A stretch of 64,000 bases of DNA from an uncultured Bacteroidales bacterium (GTDB lineage: Bacteria; Bacteroidota; Bacteroidia; Bacteroidales; VadinHA17), in NCBI GenBank assembly GCA_963823065.1, contig CAWGJX010000004.1, positions 1,088,139 through 1,152,138 of the forward strand. Direction: 5' to 3'. Both the position numbers and the translations under genes were made by a program. Positions 12,143-44,154 of this stretch are shown here, one piece after another. The notes beneath the pieces are model-generated. The model did not search any database. It was given only the letters and a program-made list of their open reading frames with translations, and had not been told where the DNA came from. How positions within the stretch are numbered: the first letter of the stretch is position 1; each line of letters begins with the position of its first letter.

Positions 12143-13591
12143 TTAATTTTTGAATTGAAAACTGAAATGTGTTCCGTCCGGCTGGATCCCGTCGATTGAT
12201 GACAGCAATTCGCCATCGGAGGTAGCTTCCCTTATTTCTGAAGCATTATTTACGGCTTTGCCGTTTATTGCTGAAATTATTGTTCCGCTTTTAATTCCCA
12301 TATCTTTTAGTTTTCCATCGCCAACACTTGCGACTTTTGTTCCGGAATCGACCGAGTATTTTTGCTTCTCTTTAGAGGTGAGAGGTATCAGTTTAGATCC
12401 AAAAACTGATTCTCCTGTACTTTCCAAAACAACAGCTGTAGTGCCATCAACATTCCGGAGTTCGACTGATGCCGTTTCCTCTTTGCCGTTTCTGAAATAA
12501 GTCACTTGAATTTTATCGCCCGGATGGTGCTCTCCTACAGTTTCCTGAAGATCGGCCGGGGACTGAATGTTTTTCCCGTTTATTTTTACTATTACATCTT
12601 TTGATTTTATTCCGGCCTGATCAGCAGCACCGCCTTCAGCCACTGATGCTATATAAACACCGCTAACATTGTCAAGTTTTTCTTTCTGTGCAATTTCTGA
12701 AGTAACTTCCTGGATATTTATTCCCATTATTGCCCTTTGTGCCCTTCCATATACTTTTAGATCATCAACAGTTTTTTTGACAATATTTACAGGGATGGCG
12801 AAGGAATTGCCGGAGTAAGTTCCTGTTGGAGAAACAATTGCTGATGTGATTCCAACGAGTTCTCCTTTAGTGTTAACCAAAGCTCCTCCGCTGTTCCCCA
12901 TATTAAGAGCAGCATCTGTCTGAATGAAAGATTCAAGCTTATAACCTCCATCCATGTCAAGACTCCTTCCTTTTGCACTTACAATCCCTGCCGTAACAGT
13001 TGAAGTAAGATTAAAAGGATTACCTACTGCAAGTACCCATTCGCCAAGTTTCAGGTTATCCGAATCACCAAATTTTATTGTCGGCAGGTCCTTAGCTTTA
13101 ATTTTGATTAAGGCAATATCTGTATCAGGATCCCTTCCAACTATTGCGGCGGTATATGTTTTGTTGTTATAAAGAGTCACTTGAATAGAATCCGCTCCAT
13201 CAATTACGTGATTATTTGTGACTATATAGCCATCCGGTGAGATTATTACTCCTGATCCAAAACCTGTGACTTTTCTTGGCTCTTGTCTCATATTGTTGCC
13301 ACCAAAGAACTGCATGAAGGGATTGTCAGATTGATCATCTGTAACAGTTGTTCTGACCCTGACATGTACGACTGCCTGAACAGTTTTTTCAGCAGCATAA
13401 GTGAGGTCGACAGGCCCATCATTGGATTGCATCGATGTTAAAACAACTGGTGCAGATCTCTCAGTCTGGTTGTGTCTCTGGTCAGTAACCGATTGGTTTG
13501 CATTGGCATCTGTGTGCGAGTACACAAATATTGTACTTGAAACACCTAGGATTGCTGCCAGAAACGCAGTTAAAAATAGTTTTGTTTTCAT
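12143..13591 (-). CDS. htrA: HtrA/DegP/DegQ-family periplasmic serine endoprotease with two PDZ domains
   Basis: 482-aa ORF with an N-terminal signal sequence. Catalytic triad contexts are TNNHVI, DIALIKI and GNSGGALVN, followed by about 190 aa of PDZ-like sequence. Confidence 0.92.
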   Translation of the reverse strand: MKTKLFLTAFLAAILGVSSTIFVYSHTDANANQSVTDQRHNQTERSAPVVLTSMQSNDGPVDLTYAAEKTVQAVVHVRVRTTVTDDQSDNPFMQFFGGNNMRQEPRKVTGFGSGVIISPDGYIVTNNHVIDGADSIQVTLYNNKTYTAAIVGRDPDTDIALIKIKAKDLPTIKFGDSDNLKLGEWVLAVGNPFNLTSTVTAGIVSAKGRSLDMDGGYKLESFIQTDAALNMGNSGGALVNTKGELVGITSAIVSPTGTYSGNSFAIPVNIVKKTVDDLKVYGRAQRAIMGINIQEVTSEIAQKEKLDNVSGVYIASVAEGGAADQAGIKSKDVIVKINGKNIQSPADLQETVGEHHPGDKIQVTYFRNGKEETASVELRNVDGTTAVVLESTGESVFGSKLIPLTSKEKQKYSVDSGTKVASVGDGKLKDMGIKSGTIISAINGKAVNNASEIREATSDGELLSSIDGIQPDGTHFSFQFKN

Positions 13592-13639: not shown

Positions 13640-13680
13640 CAAATTGAATGCCAATTATTCCTAATTAACAATAGATTAAC
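13640..13680 (-). promoter_or_regulatory. candidate htrA promoter block: GTTAAT-N5-GTTAAT direct repeat, 10 nt, then TGGCATTCAATTTG
   Basis: The reverse complement reads GTTAATCTATTGTTAAT aggaataatt TGGCATTCAATTTG and ends 48 nt upstream of the htrA ATG. It is near-identical to the block at 14647-14687 in the same gene-relative orientation. Confidence 0.6.
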
Positions 13681-13855
13681 TAATTGATTAAAGAATCTTA
13701 ACATATCGGAAATTAAGACTTCTTACAGTTTCTTTTGCTCTATTATAAATGAATAGTGATTAATCACATCACTCATTACCTGATGACTGGCTGCCGTTGT
13801 GAACCTTTCAGAACAGATGGAGGCTATAAAAGGGATGGTATTCCCGGAATCAATA

Positions 13856-14443
13856 TTATCCTATAATTAATTCTCCTGTCAGTTTTTCGATTTTGGCAGG
13901 AATATTCCAGAAAAAAAGCTGATTTATTATTGCGTTTTGCTCTTTTTCTGTAACGCCAATATTCAGAACTGTGCCGTTAAAATATTTCGCAATAAAATTG
14001 TCACTTCCCTGGTTAGCATTATAAATAACACTCTCTATCACATCGACTTTTATGAACTTCTGCATGACAATATCCTTCTCTTCAATTTTTAAAGTCCTGT
14101 GATGCCTTAATGTACTTTTCATAAAATTGATATATTTTTCCTTATCAAAGCCCTTTGATTTGTGCAAATACAGGTACAGGTTATTATTTTCAATTATTGC
14201 ACGTCCTTTATAATATGGAGATTTTATATCCAGGGCAATATAGTAACTGTTAGAATCAAAGTCATTTAAAATTTTATTATAAAATGACGAATTAGGGTTG
14301 GTGCATGATATAAATGGATTTTTCAAGATCAGAAAGAGTATGAAAATCAATCCCGGGATTCTGTAAGATTTTCGACTCCATGATTTTACAGTGTTGATTC
14401 TGCTTTTAAGGAGCTGTTCGGCTATTCTTGGGTTCATAAGCAT
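13856..14443 (-). CDS. hypothetical protein (signal-anchor or lipoprotein-like N-terminus)
   Basis: 195-aa ORF with hydrophobic N-terminal IPGLIFILFLILKNPFISC. No recognisable family. Confidence 0.55.
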   Translation of the reverse strand: MLMNPRIAEQLLKSRINTVKSWSRKSYRIPGLIFILFLILKNPFISCTNPNSSFYNKILNDFDSNSYYIALDIKSPYYKGRAIIENNNLYLYLHKSKGFDKEKYINFMKSTLRHHRTLKIEEKDIVMQKFIKVDVIESVIYNANQGSDNFIAKYFNGTVLNIGVTEKEQNAIINQLFFWNIPAKIEKLTGELIIG

Positions 14444-14646
14444 AAAATGTTGTATTTAATTAATTCATTTTTATGTACTAATTATTTTTCAGGATATTGT
14501 CTGTTATAAAACAATCTATTCTTCAGTTTTCCTTTTAAAGAAGCATATTTTTAAAAGTTATTTCCTGTATATATGTCAATTTCTTCGGATCTGCAAGTTA
14601 TATCTCTTTTCTTAAAGGCAGAACGTTAAGAGTCTCTTAAACATAA

Positions 14647-14687
14647 GTTAATCTATTGTTAATGACCTATATCTGGCATTTATTTTG
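14647..14687 (+). promoter_or_regulatory. candidate promoter block: GTTAAT-N5-GTTAAT direct repeat, 10 nt, then TGGCATTTATTTTG
   Basis: GTTAATCTATTGTTAAT (17/17 identical to the htrA copy), a 10-nt spacer, then TGGCATTTATTTTG (12/14 identical). It ends 35 nt upstream of the ATG at 14723. Confidence 0.6.
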
Positions 14688-14722: not shown

Positions 14723-15586
14723 ATGAAAACAAAGACGTTAACATTGGCAGGATCAGCAATCATTGCGATTCTGTTAATCACTACTGGTATTGCGCTAATC
14801 TCAAATTCAAGAAATAAGCGCAATTTTAATAATGAAAAGCTCCAAAATGAAACTCTTTCGTCCCAAAAACTTCAGGGTTCACAAGAACTTGCCAAGTCAA
14901 AAAGTGATCTGGAAGCTATAACATCTAAAGAGGACGTAGCAAACAAAGCATTAGCCAAAGCTGAATCTTCAATTGCAGAAAAGGAACGGAGAATTGCTTA
15001 TATGTCAAAGGAAAATGCTTCCCTTATGAAAGACAAGAGTGAGCTGGCACAATTACAAAAGTCAAAAAAGGATCTCGATATAGCCTACAGTGATTTAAAA
15101 ATGGAACACCAGGCGGCATTGTCACAGATCAAAAACCTGGAGAATTCTGCTCTTATAGCTGATGCAGACAAGAGAGAACTTGTAAGTAAATTGGAAAGTT
15201 CCAGGAAAAACAGAATTGATAACATTGAGATCTTTGGTTCAAGAGGTAATAAAAATGATAACCTTACTTACAAAGCACGAAGGATAAAAGACCTGAATCT
15301 AAATTTCGATTCACCTCTGGGTAAAAATGATAATTTATCCTATAAGATAATAACACCATCCGGGACAATTATAAGTCCGGAAGATAAATTATCATCATGG
15401 CTTGTTGTTGACCATAGTCCACAGAAAATGACTGCAAGTTTGTCATCTGCGTCAGGGGATCCTGAAAACTTGAGACAGATAGTATTGAAAGATAAAGACA
15501 GGGACAAACTTAAGTCAGGAGAGTATACGATCCAGATATTTAGTAATGATAAGAACATTGGTAGCTACAGGTTAAAACTGAGGTAG
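14723..15586 (+). CDS. membrane-anchored coiled-coil protein of unknown function
   Basis: 287-aa ORF with N-terminal TM segment AGSAIIAILLITTGIALI. About 130 aa is K/E/L/S-rich heptad-like sequence, followed by a C-terminal beta-rich region. Confidence 0.65.
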   Translation: MKTKTLTLAGSAIIAILLITTGIALISNSRNKRNFNNEKLQNETLSSQKLQGSQELAKSKSDLEAITSKEDVANKALAKAESSIAEKERRIAYMSKENASLMKDKSELAQLQKSKKDLDIAYSDLKMEHQAALSQIKNLENSALIADADKRELVSKLESSRKNRIDNIEIFGSRGNKNDNLTYKARRIKDLNLNFDSPLGKNDNLSYKIITPSGTIISPEDKLSSWLVVDHSPQKMTASLSSASGDPENLRQIVLKDKDRDKLKSGEYTIQIFSNDKNIGSYRLKLR

Positions 15587-16650: not shown

Positions 16651-17871
16651 ATGAACGACTATCTCAAATTTGCATGGCGTAATTTATGGCGTAACAAACG
16701 GAGGACCCTGATTACAACAGCATCGATTTTTTTTGGAGTGATATTATCAACTGTTATGAGTTCTATGCAGGAAGGCTCATATGCGATGTATATCAAGACT
16801 ATCGTGAATTTCTATTCAGGTTATATACAGGTTCATAGCAAAGGATACTGGAAAGATAAAGTAATCAATAACTCTTTGGAGTATTCTGCTGTTAAATCAA
16901 AATTATCGATGGTAAAAGGGATTACAGCAATTACACCACGATTGGAAAACTATGCATTGGCTTCTTCTGATGAAATTACAAAAGGTGTAATGGTAATAGG
17001 TATAGAACCAAAGGAAGAGGATGATATCACAAATCTGTCGAAGAAGATAATCAACGGTAACTTTCTCAATCACGGGGGATAATGGTGTTGTATTGGGCAG
17101 CACCCTGGCCAGATACATGAAACTTGAGAGTAAACGATACACTTGTTTTATTAAGCCAGGGATACCATGGAGTCGGAGCTGCAGGAAAATACCCTGTAAA
17201 AGGCATAATTAAACAGCCTTCTCCTGAGCTCGACAGAACTGTTGTTTATATGAATCTGACCAATTGCCAGGAACTGTTTTCTGCACCGGACAGGCTTACT
17301 TCAATAGTAATCATGGTTAAAAACAATAATGTGTTACCAGCTATCAAAAATGAGCTTATTTCAAAACTGGGAAACAGTTATGAGGTTATGGACTGGAAGG
17401 AGATTAAACAGCATTCTTTTGAAACAGATTGATAGCGATCGTGCATCGGGAATGATAATAAAGGGAATACTTTATATGATCATTGCTTTTGGAATATTCG
17501 GAACAGTACTCATGATGATGCTTGAACGAAGAAAAGAATTCGGTGTAATAGTGGCAATTGGAATGCAGAAATACAAACTGGGTTATATTCTGGTTCTTGA
17601 AACTATATTATTGGGGTTGACTGGCGTTATAGCTGGTATTGCGGTAAGTATTCCAATTACCTGGTATTTCACTTTTCATCCTATTCCATTCACCGGACAG
17701 GCGGCAGAAACAATGCTTCAGATGGGATTTGAACCTGTAATGTCTTTTTCAATGACACCTTCGGTGTATTATAATCAGGGTATCACGATATTTATTTTCA
17801 CATTGATAATAAGTCTTTATCCTGTTTTCAATATCAACCGACTTAAAATCAGTAAAGCATTACATAGTTAA
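16651..17871 (+). pseudogene. ABC transporter permease, FtsX/MacB-type (copy 1), split over three frames
   Basis: ORFs 16651..17082, 17124..17432 and 17329..17871 occupy frames 1, 0 and 1. N-terminal FAWRNLWRNKRRT and the C-terminal FtsX four-helix region are present. Total of 1221 nt fits about 406 aa. Confidence 0.8.
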
Positions 17872-32570: not shown

Positions 32571-33924
32571 TTAAATTTGCTTCTTAAATGTTATTTCGAA
32601 TCTGGTCCCTTCATTCTCAGCACTATATACTTCTAGTTTGCTTCCATGAAGCTCTATGATTTTGCTTACAAGAGAAAGACCGATTCCATACCCGGCTTTA
32701 AATCTGACATTCGAAGCCCTTTTAAATGGCAGATAAATGCTTTCCAATTCATCTGAAGGTATGCCTATTCCATTGTCGGATATGATGATCTTAATTTCTG
32801 TCTTCAATATTAAAAACTTGATTATCACATCATCATTTGAAAATTTACAGGCATTGTCGATTAAATTATTAAATGCTATTGTTAATAACCCTGAATTCCC
32901 TTTGATTAACAGATTATTTTCATTCTCAGGATACTGAATTTTTGGAATAATCCTGCGATTCTTATAACTGTTTTTAACATTGAGTATTGCATTATATACT
33001 ATTTCATCTATCCTGACAATTGTCAGTTAGAATAGTGTTTTGACCATTTATCTGTGCCAGTTCCAATAAACTATTCAATAATGTATTAAGTTTCTTAAGG
33101 TCGTTCATTAAGCCTGAAATATGTTTGATATAGGCTTCATTTGTTTGTTCACGACTTAATAAATAGTCGCTTTCCCCAATCATTACAGTCAGAGGAGTCC
33201 GTAATTCATGCGAGGCATTCGAGACAAAATCTTCCTGATTTTTAAATGCAATTTCAAGATTGCTCAGTAATTCATTAAATGTTATTGCCAACTGGTCTAT
33301 TTCATCCTTCCGGTTACCTTCGTTCAACCTGTTTCCAAGCCTGAGTGAATTGATATCCTTCACACTTCTTATTATCTGTGAGATGGGCTGAATGGCCTTT
33401 TTAGAGAAAAAATATGACAGAAGCACCGATAACCAAACACTGAAAAGTATGCTCCAGAGAAGAATTCCGCGGAGTTCTGATAGATTTTCACGACGGGTAT
33501 TGTCGAAAGCCATTACGAACACATAATATGTCTTGTTTTTATATGTATGCCGGTAGCGAACCCCATCTTTTTCTGCTATTGAGAAGAAATTTATAACTGT
33601 ACTTTTTGTATACTGTCGCATTACCCTGTCAGTAAGATACTGGATATTATTTCCATACACTAGTCTATACGCTGAATCGGTTAATGCAATCTCTTCCTTT
33701 TTCCAGGAAATCGTTGATTGATGGATTTTTTTTAATAATGACGAATCGACTTCAGCAACATTGATCAATAAAATAGCGGTGTTCTTCGCACCGTCATAAA
33801 GATCTTCCCTGAATTTGGCCCGTTGACTTGAATAGGAAAAGTAATAGACCAGTATTGAAAAAAACAATAAAATTACGGCAACAATAAGCGTGAATTGTAA
33901 TGATAATCTTGTTTTTATATTCAT
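32571..33924 (-). pseudogene. sensor histidine kinase (TM-HAMP-HisKA-HATPase), one frameshift near 33010-33030
   Basis: ORF 33004..33924 carries the H-box SHELRTPLT. The HATPase region (NLIDNACKFS...DNGIGIP...GYGIGLSLV) is open in another frame from about 33025 down to 32571. Total of 1354 nt. Confidence 0.85.
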
Positions 33925-33926
33925 CG

Positions 33927-34616
33927 TCAGATTTCTTTCTCACTGCAGTAAAATCCAAACCCGAACTTTGTATGTATTAATTTGGGTTGAAAATCTTTAT
34001 CGATTTTCTTTCTCAGATAGTTGACATAAACATCAATTATATTCGTGTTTGGATCAAAGTCGATACCCCATACCTGTTCAATTATATAATCACGGGTAAG
34101 AAGCTTTTCTTTATTCTTTATGAATGTCTCCAGCAATGTATATTCTTTTGCAGTTAAATCAATTTTTTTATTTGCCCTTGTAACAGATTTGGTATTTAAA
34201 TCCATTACGAGATCGGCAATTCTGAATTTTACATTCAGATCATTTTTCTGTGATCGTTTAAGAAATACATTAACGCGTGCTAATAATTCTCTGAAATCGA
34301 AAGGTTTTAAAACGTAATCGTCAGCCCCGGCATCAAATCCTTCTATTTTGTTATCGGGAGTTCCAAGAGCTGTCAGCATAATAATAGGTATTTTGCTGTT
34401 GGTCTTTCTTATTTCTTTGCATAAGTCATATCCATTAATAAGCGGCAGATTAATATCCAGTATGATGAGATTATACGATTTATTTTCAACTGACTGTTTT
34501 CCAATATATCCATCAGGAGCAATTTCAGCTCTGAATCCTGATTCTTCTAATTGTTTTTTCAGAATTTCAGCCAGCCGTTGTTCATCTTCGACTATCAGTA
34601 TATTGATATCATCCAT
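33927..34616 (-). CDS. OmpR/PhoB-family response regulator
   Basis: 229-aa ORF. The receiver domain has ILIVEDE, ILDINLP and KPF. A C-terminal winged-helix region (LTAKEYTLLETF, VYVNYLRKKI) follows. Confidence 0.92.
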   Translation of the reverse strand: MDDINILIVEDEQRLAEILKKQLEESGFRAEIAPDGYIGKQSVENKSYNLIILDINLPLINGYDLCKEIRKTNSKIPIIMLTALGTPDNKIEGFDAGADDYVLKPFDFRELLARVNVFLKRSQKNDLNVKFRIADLVMDLNTKSVTRANKKIDLTAKEYTLLETFIKNKEKLLTRDYIIEQVWGIDFDPNTNIIDVYVNYLRKKIDKDFQPKLIHTKFGFGFYCSEKEI

Positions 34617-34774
34617 AATGGTTCGCTTATTTGCACAAAGTTAGAATACAAAAGAAAATAATCTTTTTTTATAATGAGTTTCTTAATAAATTCTAATGAT
34701 ATTCTAATCAACGAACACAATGAACATAGTTAGATTTGTCCAGGCCACAATTGTAGAACAGCTATTGAAGCAAA

Positions 34775-34873
34775 ATGAAAAAAATAAATCTTTCAGGTGA
34801 TGCAGTATTTTATCTGGTTATTCTTGTTGGATTTGCAATTCTGGCTATTTTAAAAATATTCGTTATTAAATAA
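34775..34873 (+). CDS. possible 32-aa hydrophobic leader peptide upstream of nhaD
   Basis: My translation is MKKINLSGDAVFYLVILVGFAILAILKIFVIK. It is followed by a hairpin at 34949-34983. There is no homology evidence. Confidence 0.25.
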   Translation: MKKINLSGDAVFYLVILVGFAILAILKIFVIK

Positions 34874-34948
34874 CCAAGAGACAATAATGAATTTTTTGAA
34901 ACCATGAGCTAGACCTTTATTTAATTAATACTTTGTTTATTACCAGAT

Positions 34949-34983
34949 AGCAGTTGTCTTTGGAATCTAACCCGACAACTGCT
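34949..34983 (+). terminator. hairpin with a T-rich tail between the small ORF and nhaD (terminator or attenuator candidate)
   Basis: agcagttgtc (34949-34958) pairs perfectly with gacaactgct (34974-34983). The loop is 15 nt and the hairpin is followed by ttctatttatattt. Confidence 0.5.
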
Positions 34984-35103
34984 TTCTATTTATATTTATA
35001 CATGCTTTGTTGTGAATTGTAGACTGTTCATCTTCAGAAGTTGTTATTTTTATCAGTTGATAATTCATTGTAATTCAAGAGATAGATTGATAACAAATTT
35101 GCC

Positions 35104-36384
35104 ATGGTAACAATATTGATAATAGTATTTATAATTGGGTATGCCTTTATTGCCCTGGAGCATTCAATCAGTATAAATAAGGCAGCATCTGCTTTAATTA
35201 CCGGGGTGATATGCTGGGTGATCTATATCGCTTTTAAGGGTGATCAACAAATTGTGAATGAGCAATTGACTCAGCACCTTGGCGAACTCTCAGGTGTATT
35301 ATTTTTCCTGTTATGTGCAATGACAATTGTAGAACTTATTGACTCACATGATGGTTTCGACCTTATCACTGAAAAAATAAATCAGACTAACAAGAAAAAA
35401 CTGGTCTGGATCATCGGATTTATCACCTTCTTTCTGTCAGCCATTCTTGATAATCTTACGACAACAATTGTTATTATTTCATTGCTGCGAAAATTAGTCA
35501 AAGATGATAATGACAGATTATTTTTTGTCGGAACTGTTGTTATTGCAGCAAATGCAGGAGGGGCTTGGTCGCCAATTGGCGATGTTACAACGACTATGCT
35601 ATGGATTGGCGGACAGATAACCGCATTTAACATTGTGATTAGACTTATATTACCAAGCCTGTTCTGCCTGGTTATTCCACTTATATTTATTTCCTTAAAA
35701 ATGAAAGGGAATGTTGAGCGAAGCAAGAACATTAAAAATGACCAGACAAAGTTACTGCCAAAGAATGAACAAAAAATAATATTATACTCAGGTGTTTTAG
35801 TGCTGATTTTTGTTCCTGTATTTAAAACTCTCACAAATTTACCTCCATATATGGGAATATTGTTAGGTCTTGGTATTCTCTGGATAATTACCGAAAAACT
35901 GCATAGCTCAAAAGACGAGATTGACAGACGTAATTTATCACTTGTCCACGCACTCAGGAAAATTGATACTTCAACAATCCTGTTTTTTCTTGGCATTTTG
36001 ATTGCAATATCTGCCTTACAATCATCTGGTATCTTAACTTCTCTTGCAAGGTATATGGCGGCAAAGATTGGTAATGAGAGTGTTATCGTAATCTTTATTG
36101 GATTGGCTTCATCCGTTATTGATAATGTGCCATTAGTTGCAGCAGCCCAGGGAATGTATAGTTTAACACAGTATCCCCCCGACCACTTTTTCTGGGAATT
36201 CCTGGCTTATTGCGCGGGAACCGGGGGAAGTGCCTTAATAATTGGTTCAGCAGCCGGTGTTGCAGCAATGGGGATGGAAAAAATCAATTTTTTCTGGTAT
36301 ATACGCAAAATAAGCTGGCTCGCCCTGATCGGATTCTTTTCAGGTGCAGCTATTTATATTCTGCAGGATATAATAATGCACTGA
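35104..36384 (+). CDS. nhaD: NhaD-family Na+/H+ antiporter (ArsB/NhaD permease superfamily)
   Basis: 426-aa polytopic ORF with FFLSAILDNLTTTIV and SSVIDNVPLVAAAQGMY, typical of NhaD. Confidence 0.85.
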   Translation: MVTILIIVFIIGYAFIALEHSISINKAASALITGVICWVIYIAFKGDQQIVNEQLTQHLGELSGVLFFLLCAMTIVELIDSHDGFDLITEKINQTNKKKLVWIIGFITFFLSAILDNLTTTIVIISLLRKLVKDDNDRLFFVGTVVIAANAGGAWSPIGDVTTTMLWIGGQITAFNIVIRLILPSLFCLVIPLIFISLKMKGNVERSKNIKNDQTKLLPKNEQKIILYSGVLVLIFVPVFKTLTNLPPYMGILLGLGILWIITEKLHSSKDEIDRRNLSLVHALRKIDTSTILFFLGILIAISALQSSGILTSLARYMAAKIGNESVIVIFIGLASSVIDNVPLVAAAQGMYSLTQYPPDHFFWEFLAYCAGTGGSALIIGSAAGVAAMGMEKINFFWYIRKISWLALIGFFSGAAIYILQDIIMH

Positions 36385-43214: not shown

Positions 43215-44081
43215 ATGAAAACAATTATTGTTCCCCTTGATCTCTCAGATGAGTCATTAAATGGTCTGAATCTCGCAGTTATGTTGGCTACTAAAACCGG
43301 AGCTAACATTATAATGGTTCATGTCACCGGAGTATATACCGGCGATTATTATGAACAGAAAGAAAAGGAAAATAAATTTGCGCAAACAAAATTTGACGGA
43401 TTACTTCGGGAATATAAAGATAAAATCAAAAATTTTTCTCTAAGTTATATAATAAAAGAAGGTAAGATATTCAAGGAAGTAGCAGACCTGGCAGATAAGT
43501 ATGAAGACGCATTGACTGTGCTTGCAACTCATGGGTCATCAGGATTTGAAGAATTGTTTATCGGAGGTAACGCTTACAAAATAGCTTCTCATTCCAGAAA
43601 TCCGGTGATCACAGTCAGAAAAAGCAACATACCTTCAAAAATTAGTAATATAGTACTGCCTCTTGACATGACTTTCCAGACTCGTGAAAAGGTTCCATAT
43701 ACGGTTGACCTTGCTAAGAAATTTGGTTCAAAAATTCATATTCTGACAATAAGGTTATCAAATTTAAAAAGTATTGAAAAGAGGCTTCAAAATTATGCTG
43801 AACAGGTGGCTTCATATCTCGACTCACATAAAATTTCATATACAGTGGAATATCTTCATGGAGGAAACCTGACTGACTTGACTCTTGATTATTCCCGTTC
43901 AATAAGTGCTGATATGATTTCAATAATGACCGAGCAGGAGAAGAGTGCTTCAAATCTGTTGCTGGGAAATTTTGCTCATCAAATGATAAACAAAGCTTAT
44001 ATACCGGTTTTATCATTTCCAAATCACCATTTACGAATAACAGCTGAGGATATCTGGACTTTAGGCGCATTTAACCCCTGA
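43215..44081 (+). CDS. tandem universal stress protein (two UspA domains)
   Basis: 288-aa ORF with IIVPLDLSDES and VLATHGSSGFEELFIGGNAYKIASHSRNPVITV, then a second Usp-like half. Confidence 0.85.
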   Translation: MKTIIVPLDLSDESLNGLNLAVMLATKTGANIIMVHVTGVYTGDYYEQKEKENKFAQTKFDGLLREYKDKIKNFSLSYIIKEGKIFKEVADLADKYEDALTVLATHGSSGFEELFIGGNAYKIASHSRNPVITVRKSNIPSKISNIVLPLDMTFQTREKVPYTVDLAKKFGSKIHILTIRLSNLKSIEKRLQNYAEQVASYLDSHKISYTVEYLHGGNLTDLTLDYSRSISADMISIMTEQEKSASNLLLGNFAHQMINKAYIPVLSFPNHHLRITAEDIWTLGAFNP

Positions 44082-44154
44082 TTTCCTGTTCGGGTTCTTT
44101 GTGACGATGTAATAAAAGCAATTAACAATTAATTAATCAAATAATTAGTAGATA

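Follow-up and report, generated by a model that had tools for sequence, protein, structure and literature searches.

The repeated block upstream of htrA and the DUF8428 gene

A 64-kb stretch of DNA from an uncultured Bacteroidales bacterium (contig CAWGJX010000004.1, positions 1,088,139 to 1,152,138; the whole stretch is referred to below as the window) was analysed with regard to a short sequence block that occurs twice, once upstream of the protease gene htrA and once upstream of a gene encoding a coiled-coil protein of the DUF8428 family. The features of this locus are listed below, with the units of each repeat array separated by slashes.

12143 to 13591, minus strand: htrA, encoding a Do/DegP-family periplasmic serine protease of 482 amino acids with Trypsin_2 and two PDZ domains (Pfam).
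13640 to 13653, minus strand: putative core-promoter part of the htrA block, with TGGCAT (13647-13652) 10 nt past the last array unit and then a -7-like box, TCAATTTG (13640-13647).
13680 to 13640, minus strand: htrA block of 41 nt, GTTAATCTATTGTTAAT-TAGGAATAAT-TGGCATTCAATTTG, read in the htrA direction.
13661 to 13704, minus strand: putative htrA operator array, atGTTAAGatt / (t)cTTTAATcaa / taGTTAATcta / ttGTTAATtag.
13856 to 14443, minus strand: gene U, encoding a predicted lipoprotein of 195 amino acids (…FISC…), located between the promoter copies and transcribed in the same direction as htrA.
14623 to 14666, plus strand: putative operator array of the DUF8428 gene, acGTTAAGagt / ctCTTAAAcat / aaGTTAATcta / ttGTTAATgac.
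14647 to 14687, plus strand: DUF8428-gene block of 41 nt, GTTAATCTATTGTTAAT-GACCTATATC-TGGCATTTATTTTG.
14674 to 14687, plus strand: putative core-promoter part of the DUF8428 block, with TGGCAT (14674-14679) and a -7-like box, TTATTTTG (14680-14687), 35 nt before the ATG.
14723 to 15586, plus strand: DUF8428 protein of 287 amino acids, with an N-terminal membrane helix running into a helix of approximately 160 residues and a small C-terminal beta-rich domain.

Re-reading of both upstream regions confirmed the similarity that had been described in the original prediction. The 17-mer was identical at 17/17 positions and the distal part at 12/14, the blocks ended 48 nt before the ATG of htrA (at 13591) and 35 nt before that of the gene at 14723, and the two copies were inverted with respect to each other, enclosing the open reading frame (ORF) at 13856-14443. 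A repeat search of the window extended the inverted similarity to 63 nt (13640-13702 versus 14625-14687, 76% complementary), and alignment of the two copies revealed that this upstream extension adds two more units in 11-bp phase, GTTAAG and (C/T)TTAA(A/T). The GTTAAT pair had been regarded as a two-unit direct repeat with the geometry used by OmpR/PhoB-type regulators. The 11-bp period was retained, but the two-unit site was not, since four units are present and the GTTAAT pair is the promoter-proximal half of a four-unit YTAAT array. The period is exactly 11 bp in the array of the DUF8428 promoter (gaps of 11, 11 and 11); in the htrA array unit 2 is one base off phase (gaps of 10, 12 and 11).

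The exact 17-mer occurs at only two places in the 64 kb. When up to three mismatches were allowed there was one more match, compared to 0.76 in shuffled sequences; this site (44121-44137, minus strand, ATTAATTAATTGTTAAT, three mismatches) is probably due to chance because it runs antisense into the gene at 43215-44081 and was missed by the four-unit matrix described below. A loose search for GTTAAT-N5-GTTAAT with two mismatches gave 14 matches in the window compared to 13.8 expected, which is no enrichment. The earlier view that chance was an unlikely source of the similarity was therefore upheld for the whole block taken together with its conservation in other genomes, where the weight of the evidence lies, but not for the hexamers by themselves.

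A 44-nt weight matrix (31.8 bits) was built from 23 arrays, all of them from other genomes. It picked three sites in the window: the DUF8428 array at 14623-14666 (plus strand), which was the top match at 35.8 bits, a third array at 34668-34711 (plus strand, 21.7 bits) and the htrA array at 13661-13704 (minus strand, 17.4 bits). The fourth-ranking match scored 6.4 bits. In 100 simulated windows the top score had a mean of 8.6 and a standard deviation of 3.2, with a maximum of 19.5, so that the third array exceeded all of the simulated windows, whereas the htrA array lay within the simulated range by score alone. What supports the htrA array is the exact 17-mer together with conservation in other genomes, rather than the matrix score. 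In 410 kb of fetched loci approximately 60 matches above 14 bits were obtained, every one of which was aimed at a start codon 34-128 nt downstream. The genes behind these arrays encode DUF8428 proteins, HtrA, an Na+/Ca2+ exchanger and small membrane peptides.

The assignment of the HtrA product was supported by a score of 426.9 bits on TIGR02037 (cutoff of 416.2). The product of 14723-15586 had no match in the Pfam copy that was first used. It has just 30 homologues in 5.8 billion clusters, all of them carrying PF28532 (DUF8428) and all of them Bacteroidales-like metagenome sequences. An AlphaFold2 model of this protein contained a helix from residue 2 to residue 164, with predicted local distance difference test (pLDDT) values mostly between 75 and 96 and of approximately 59 at residues 1-10; the C-terminal strands were modelled with low confidence. 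Gene U had no Pfam or NCBIfam match, and no array of its own was found in matrix scans of the window and the fetched loci.

Conservation of the array in related genomes

A genome-wide pattern scan for GTTAAT-N5-GTTAAT-N10-TGGCATT in 185,579 species genomes, with the pattern that had been proposed for a search of the whole genome, returned 14 loci. Five of these were in metagenome-assembled genomes (MAGs) of uncultured Bacteroidales, in which the block lay upstream of a DUF8428 gene, an htrA gene or both; the motif is therefore present in relatives and not confined to the window. The entire extended block was kept in all five loci, and the sequence on either side had diverged. The nine non-Bacteroidales matches did not have the extended block and look like chance matches or unrelated repeats.

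In one relative (L006) a single block is followed by a DUF8428-like gene and, 54 nt later, by htrA. The same gene order, with frameshifts, was found in L001 and L010. In another genome the coiled-coil gene (L009) and htrA (L012) are at separate places on one 4.38-Mb contig, with a block before each. Homologues of gene U adjoin the array and the coiled-coil gene in L001, L010, L017, L019, L028 and L009, usually just upstream. This gene order in the relatives indicates that the ancestral unit was gene U, promoter, coiled-coil gene and htrA. In the window the operon is split, with the promoter duplicated in inverted orientation around gene U, and the locus is an example of rewiring, in which one operon became two units through a duplicated promoter and operator. 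L074 was the closest relative found, with a coiled-coil protein 88% identical; its layout is split in the same way and it has kept both copies of the block, with array scores of 17.0 bits for the htrA copy and 31.2 bits for the DUF8428 copy. Most intergenic columns are identical between the window and L074, and the two are too close for a discriminating footprint.

An independent sample consisted of 54 metagenome loci that were fetched through DUF8428 protein homology alone, without reference to the motif. Approximately 28 of the 32 distinct DUF8428 upstream regions contained three to five (T/C)TAAT units, typically four, with an exact 11-bp period and T, C or G as the preceding base. The exceptions were L018 and L047/L055, together with L065, in which the array is located one small ORF further upstream. 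Overall, a period of exactly 11 bp was observed in more than 40 distinct arrays. On the evidence of these sequences, the array is likely to serve as a response-regulator operator through which htrA and the DUF8428 gene would be co-regulated.

Additional, weaker arrays were detected at L009 1068-1111 (18.0 bits) and L012 7604-7647 (17.3 bits), before a second htrA paralogue and a gene for a secreted protein. The presence of these arrays suggests that the regulon exceeds two genes in close relatives.

The window sequence was found only in DNA metagenomes from soil and peat. Sludge-metagenome runs labelled 'RNA-Seq' (X6, X10, X12 and X17) were considered as a source of transcripts for L043 5000-7000. 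They proved to be DNA, with contigs of 12-140 kb (up to 143 kb) and a flat depth over genes and intergenic regions, and yielded no transcription start sites.

Linked two-component systems and putative core promoters

The third array in the window is adjacent to genes for a two-component system (TCS), which was termed TCS-1.

32575 to 33924, minus strand: histidine kinase next to the TCS-1 regulator, with two membrane helices, HAMP, HisKA and HATPase.
33927 to 34616, minus strand: OmpR-family response regulator of TCS-1, with Response_reg and Trans_reg_C domains (Pfam).
34668 to 34711, plus strand: third array, divergent from the regulator gene, ttTATAATgag / ttCTTAATaaa / atTCTAATgat / atTCTAATcaa.
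34731 to 34738, plus strand: perfect Bacteroidetes -7 box, TAGATTTG (6/6), 22 nt past the last unit of the third array.
34775 to 34873, plus strand: single-helix membrane peptide of 32 amino acids (MKKINLSGDAVFYLVILVGFAILAILKIFVIK), 36 nt past the -7 box of the third array.
35104 to 36384, plus strand: NhaD-type Na+/H+ antiporter, with 163.7 bits on NF038006 (NhaD_1; cutoff of 80) and a CitMHS domain (Pfam).

The genetic linkage between the arrays and regulators of the OmpR type took three layouts. In the first (L025, L026, L029 and L059) an OmpR-family regulator and a HAMP-HisKA-HATPase kinase end right upstream of the array; L034, judged by sequence only, has a kinase-like C-terminus directly upstream of its array. 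In the second (L032, L040, L044-L046, L050, L052 and L060/L062) the regulator and kinase form an operon that points away from the DUF8428 gene, and the shared intergenic region of approximately 170 nt contains the array. In the third (L021, L030, L031, L036, L038 and L054) the regulator-kinase pair is located a few kb downstream. The regulators of the second layout are 76-82% identical to the protein encoded at 33927-34616; for the kinases of this layout, identity to the product of 33004-33924 is 62-77%. The systems of the first and third layouts belong to a second lineage, TCS-2, which is approximately 50% identical to TCS-1 and has an almost identical recognition helix. A tblastn search of the window with the 33927-34616 regulator returned only the regulator itself. 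This protein had been named as a candidate for binding studies, and its standing has been strengthened, since it is an orthologue of the regulators that are divergent from DUF8428 genes and has an array of its own in the window. The TCS-1 regulator family, found in Bacteroidota and Ignavibacteriota, is very large and highly conserved, with more than 5000 homologues, many of which are at least 80% identical across classes.

The units of the third array, written as core letters, are TTCTTAAT / TCTAAT / TCTAAT. Five further loci (L069-L073) were selected by the regulator alone and included a Bacteroidetes RBG MAG, a Melioribacteraceae MAG and a close-clade contig of 4.99 Mb. All five have an array divergent from the regulator gene, followed after 22 nt by TAG(A/G)TTTG, and the counterpart of the third array is at the equivalent place in these loci and in L065. 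Homologous peptides of 32-33 amino acids are encoded behind arrays in L039, L040, L064, L065, L069, L070 and L071, reaching as far as Melioribacteraceae MAGs; the peptide of the window had no Pfam or NCBIfam family match. The antiporter layout is repeated in L073, in which no peptide ORF was detected, NhaA is encoded in L069/L070, and an Na+/H+ antiporter is present in most of the regulator-selected loci; L072 ends too near the array to show either peptide or antiporter. The antiporter encoded at 35104-36384 also scored 394 bits on TIGR00775, which is below the cutoff of 577.1.

Both -7-like boxes at the htrA locus (TCAATTTG and TTATTTTG) match the Bacteroidetes consensus TAnnTTTG at five of six positions, the A being missing (TnnnTTTG), and the conservation of the htrA block ends at the final G of this box. 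The consensus -33 element is TTTG, about 19-21 nt upstream of the -7 box; at this position, 21 nt upstream, both copies have only ATTG. Across the window 10 of 45 gene proxies had TAnnTTTG at 15-110 nt upstream, compared to 2.3±1.5 at random positions; this enrichment of approximately 4-fold indicates that the organism uses the Bacteroidetes type of promoter.

The sequence TGGCAT was invariant in 11/11 close-clade promoters, and the seventh base was T in 10/11. This clade comprises both window copies, both L074 copies, L001, L006, L009, L010, L012, L016/L028, L019 and L075. In more distant clades a Bacteroidetes -7 box (TAnnTTTG or TAnnATTG) is found where TGGCAT would be, at +10 nt. The inclusion of TGGCATT in a general motif was consequently abandoned; it is lineage-specific and limited to the close clade. 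How far the -7 box lay from the last unit also differed between clades: 10 nt in the TCS-2-linked clades (a and c), 16 nt in the clade of the window, in which TGGCAT fills positions +10 to +15, and 21-22 nt in L015, L017, the clade linked to TCS-1 and the promoters of the small peptides (approximately 22 distinct promoters).

Predicted regulation and its alternatives

The best explanation of these data, and a probable one, is that each block is a complete regulated promoter under OmpR-family two-component control. The upstream 44 nt, with four head-to-tail YTAAT half-sites, one per 11-bp turn, would accommodate two tandem winged-helix regulator dimers, in keeping with what is established for PhoB and OmpR and, in Streptomyces, for PhoP (PMC2275107). 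The downstream part would be a weak Bacteroidetes sigma-A core promoter that has a TnnnTTTG -7-like box and lacks a good -33 element. Because the core is weak and no good -33 element is present, the promoter should depend on the bound regulator, and since this weak core promoter is flanked by a regulator array, activation of the PhoB or CiaR kind is favoured; that the regulator activates is reasonably likely. The membrane histidine kinase would phosphorylate the regulator, which would then occupy the array and recruit RNA polymerase, and the regulator-bound promoters would raise the levels of HtrA and the membrane-anchored DUF8428 coiled-coil protein together. The TCS encoded at 32575-34616 would have its own divergent promoter with a similar array, driving the 32-amino-acid peptide upstream of the Na+/H+ antiporter. 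With slightly better than even confidence, judging from sequence comparisons, the protein encoded at 33927-34616 may be the regulator that reads the arrays. The retention of the array, the single operon in relatives and the TCS linkage all argue for the proposal in the original prediction that htrA and the coiled-coil gene are under an OmpR/PhoB-type regulator.

Several observations weigh against this explanation. Individual AT-rich half-sites are common, and unit 2 of the array is poorly kept in L074. Of the three spacings between array and -7 box, 10 and 21-22 nt share one helix face, whereas the 16 nt in the clade of the window is half a turn off, which is unexplained; the invariance of TGGCAT is likewise left without an explanation by the model. 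The kinase frame breaks near 33005-33020, after approximately 300 codons, with the HATPase part in another frame, and Pfam analysis of 33004-33924 detected HAMP and HisKA only. The orthologous kinase in L065 is intact, with 451 amino acids that match both parts of the window kinase. The break may be an indel introduced by the assembly or may be genuine, in which case the kinase gene would be a pseudogene and the regulator an orphan. Assembly indels are likely, since a MacB/FtsX-type permease gene (16651-17871, plus strand, downstream of a LolA-like gene) is also broken in the window, where it is divided into three ORFs, and is a single gene of 405 codons in L074. Finally, the htrA and DUF8428 arrays of the window contain GTTAAT/TTAAT units only, whereas arrays associated with regulators of the window type mostly have TCTAAT, and in other clades it is the TCS-2 lineage that accompanies TTAAT-only arrays.

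The last of these points would be accommodated if the htrA and DUF8428 arrays were served by a paralogous TCS-2 regulator encoded outside the window, with the 33927-34616 protein controlling only its own peptide and antiporter promoter. This alternative is possible but doubtful. The window represents only 64 kb of a 2.75-Mb contig, the DUF8428-linked regulators of clades a and c, approximately 50% identical to the window regulator, accompany arrays that are TTAAT-only like those of the window, and the TCTAAT preference of TCS-1-linked arrays is seen in units 2-3. However, TTAAG and TTTAAT units occur as well in the DUF8428 arrays linked to TCS-1, which suggests that the TCS-1 regulator accepts TTAAT, and the two lineages scarcely differ in their recognition helices. 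In two close-clade genomes the DUF8428 gene is within 10-20 kb of TCS-1 (the distance is approximately 9.6 kb in a close-clade genome and 19 kb in the window). No close-clade TCS-2 member was present among the best 120 matches of a profile search, in a family too large for a full view. A 225-amino-acid regulator near the DUF8428 gene in L075 was considered as a TCS-2 member and rejected, as it is unrelated (only 33-36% identical).

The same arrays could be repressor operators, the regulator covering the -33 position until a signal lifts it and htrA and the DUF8428 gene are derepressed. In clades a and c the last unit is 10 nt from the -7 box and the array lies over the -33 position, as this would require, and RprY has been placed among those OmpR/PhoB regulators that work by repression (PMC6032018). 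However, the promoters with the nearest arrays have weak cores (TAnnATTG or T[CT]nnTTTG, with no TTTG at -33), which is typical of activator dependence, and in the class with a spacing of +21/22 the array is entirely upstream of the -33 position. PhoB and CiaR activate transcription with a similar geometry, in which the repeats are 10 nt upstream of the -10 box and replace the -35 element (for CiaR, PMC3091779). Repression is therefore considered unlikely.

The TGGCAT sequence raised the possibility that TGGCAT-N5-TTG is a sigma-54 (-24/-12) promoter, with the GTTAAT repeats as the site of its enhancer-binding activator. Both window copies place TGGCA and TTG at exactly the distance expected for sigma-54, and the close clade shows no variation in TGGCAT. 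Nevertheless, the C expected after TTG in the -12 element was found in only 2/11 close-clade promoters (T in 5/11, A in 3/11 and G in 1/11), TGGCA is missing at the homologous position in all other clades, which have a sigma-A -7 box there, the linked regulators are OmpR-type proteins without an AAA+ domain, and repeats abutting the -24 element would be an unusual enhancer geometry. A sigma-54 promoter is thus very improbable.

Equally hard to credit are two further readings of the block: an extracytoplasmic function (ECF) sigma promoter, or a sequence without any role in shared regulation, left over from a recent duplication or forming the inverted termini of a small mobile element that encloses gene U. 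The latter might be suggested by the inverted 63-nt copies on either side of a single gene, an arrangement shared with the closest relative (and hence possibly a young duplication). Beside the examined loci neither a -35/-10 pair of the ECF type nor a sigma or anti-sigma gene was seen, so that the ECF option of the original prediction found no support. Relatives have a single copy before an intact operon and none at its other end, gene U is lipoprotein-like and has no transposase domain, and the array recurs before non-homologous genes, as far as Melioribacteraceae MAGs, always aimed at a start codon. A longer dispersed repeat, which had been considered as a trivial source of the similarity, was not indicated either, as the two copies of the block are the only ones in the 64-kb window and the arrays are tied to gene starts.

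The predicted system was compared with known two-component systems. The closest operator match was CiaRH of Streptococcus: its regulator is likewise of the OmpR family, and its box is also a direct repeat, built on a TTAA core with a period of 11 bp. The htrA gene is a CiaR-activated target, and several CiaR targets are very small genes. The array described here is not a CiaR box. CiaRH is a Firmicute system with a sigma-70 -10 box and two units instead of four, the regulators are not orthologous, and the small targets of CiaRH are small RNAs, whereas those found here are membrane peptides. In addition, the promoter-proximal units here end in T and only the distal unit is GTTAAG; the CiaR box, NTTAAG-N5-TTTAAG, is modelled 10 nt upstream of the -10 box and its final G is essential (PMC3091779).

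The blocks had originally been likened to a CpxR box. E. coli CpxR recognises a GTAAA-N5-GTAAA box and activates degP/htrA, and a small envelope protein is also a target. The functional analogy was sustained, as both systems combine an OmpR-family regulator and a membrane kinase with tandem repeats of 10-11-bp period and a DegP/HtrA target. The half-site, in contrast, is YTAAT, or in full (G/T/C)T(T/C)AAT, and not GTAAA, and the neighbours are cation antiporters instead of cpxP. By NCBIfam the window regulator is neither CpxR nor BaeR, with CpxR absent from its best 25 matches, and the window kinase scored 44-48 bits on CpxA models (cutoffs of 486-800). The system resembles CpxRA-degP and CiaRH-htrA functionally and is a member of neither family.

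OmpR/PhoB regulators bind tandem direct repeats of approximately 11 bp, and PhoB activates in a class-II-type manner, its repeats replacing the -35 element. The Pho boxes of PhoB and PhoP resemble the present arrays in having exact 11-bp units, in forming arrays of at least two dimer sites and, as predicted from the -7-like boxes, in their location at, or in place of, the -35 element; for Streptomyces PhoP, 11-nt repeat units have been described (PMC2275107). They differ in the half-site, and no phosphate-regulon genes are nearby here. The window regulator scored 183.3 on PhoB models (cutoff of 296.2) and 178.4 on the Bacteroidetes PhoB model (cutoff of 270).

RprXY of Bacteroides and Porphyromonas is also a Bacteroidetes OmpR-family system, tied to Na+ and stress chaperones, and its antiporter neighbourhood is shared: in some Porphyromonas species it adjoins NhaA and an Na+/H+ exchanger (PMC6032018; PMC5706477). 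The window regulator is not RprY, scoring 160.8 bits on the NCBIfam equivalog (cutoff of 370), and no RprY DNA-binding motif was found in the RprY literature searched. HaeSR of P. gingivalis, which binds an 'htrA' promoter, was set aside as irrelevant, since that gene is involved in hemin transport. The best-scoring NCBIfam subfamily for both regulator and kinase was CusRS/CopRS/CzcRS, and Joint Genome Institute (JGI) pipelines name homologues of the window regulator 'CusR'. A heavy-metal identity was rejected because the regulator scored 234.7 on TIGR01387 (cutoff of 279.2) and the kinase, as a query truncated by the frameshift, scored 114.2 on TIGR01386 (cutoff of 292.55); beside the examined loci there were neither metal efflux nor copper genes to be seen. 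The E. coli CusR box is palindromic, in contrast to the four-unit direct repeat found here.

Regulation of HtrA-type proteases in Bacteroidetes is poorly known, and no literature on this operator or on two-component control of HtrA in Bacteroidetes was found. With its four YTAAT units at a period of 11 bp, the array would offer a defined operator, and the genes behind such arrays a first regulon, for a two-component family found widely among environmental Bacteroidota and their relatives. The predicted regulon includes DUF8428 proteins, HtrA, small membrane peptides and cation antiporters, in a family that annotation pipelines mislabel. The principle of a response regulator acting on phased direct repeats is already textbook knowledge; the value lies in the annotation and in guiding experiments.

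In the original prediction the two genes were placed in one envelope-stress regulon. A single regulon is supported by the conserved arrays and the linked OmpR-family TCS, but envelope stress was conjectural as the signal, and a signal of ionic or membrane origin is no less likely than protein-folding stress, because the neighbours of the regulator loci are antiporters, H+-PPase, MscS and small membrane peptides. Taken further, the locus could belong to an Na+ or pH stress circuit, comprising kinase, regulator, TCTAAT operator and a micro-peptide that feeds back on the kinase or gates the antiporter in the manner of MgrB-PhoQ, into which HtrA and the DUF8428 protein were rewired; we regard this as an improbable extension. 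The invariant core would then be the kinase and regulator, a four-unit TCTAAT operator, a membrane peptide of 32-33 amino acids and an Na+/H+ antiporter, and one soil Bacteroidales lineage would have evolved a variant promoter with the extra TGGCAT and a half-turn shift. Independently of this circuit, the 32-amino-acid peptide may modulate the kinase by feedback or act together with the antiporter.

Between the peptide ORF and the NhaD antiporter gene there is a hairpin at 34945-34987 (plus strand; dG -18.9 kcal/mol, z -6.1) with a U-rich tail; its loop of 15 nt causes a simple terminator scan to miss it. The hairpin could act as a terminator, or as an attenuator controlling whether the antiporter too is driven by the array. 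In four loci (L027, L039, L041 and L042) an array is located directly before an Na+/Ca2+ exchanger gene, for example at L027 1929-1972. Other neighbours in TCS-1-linked loci included an Na+/H+ exchanger, a SPOR-domain protein and a coiled-coil OmpA-family lipoprotein (L065 2009-3205 and 6955-8371).

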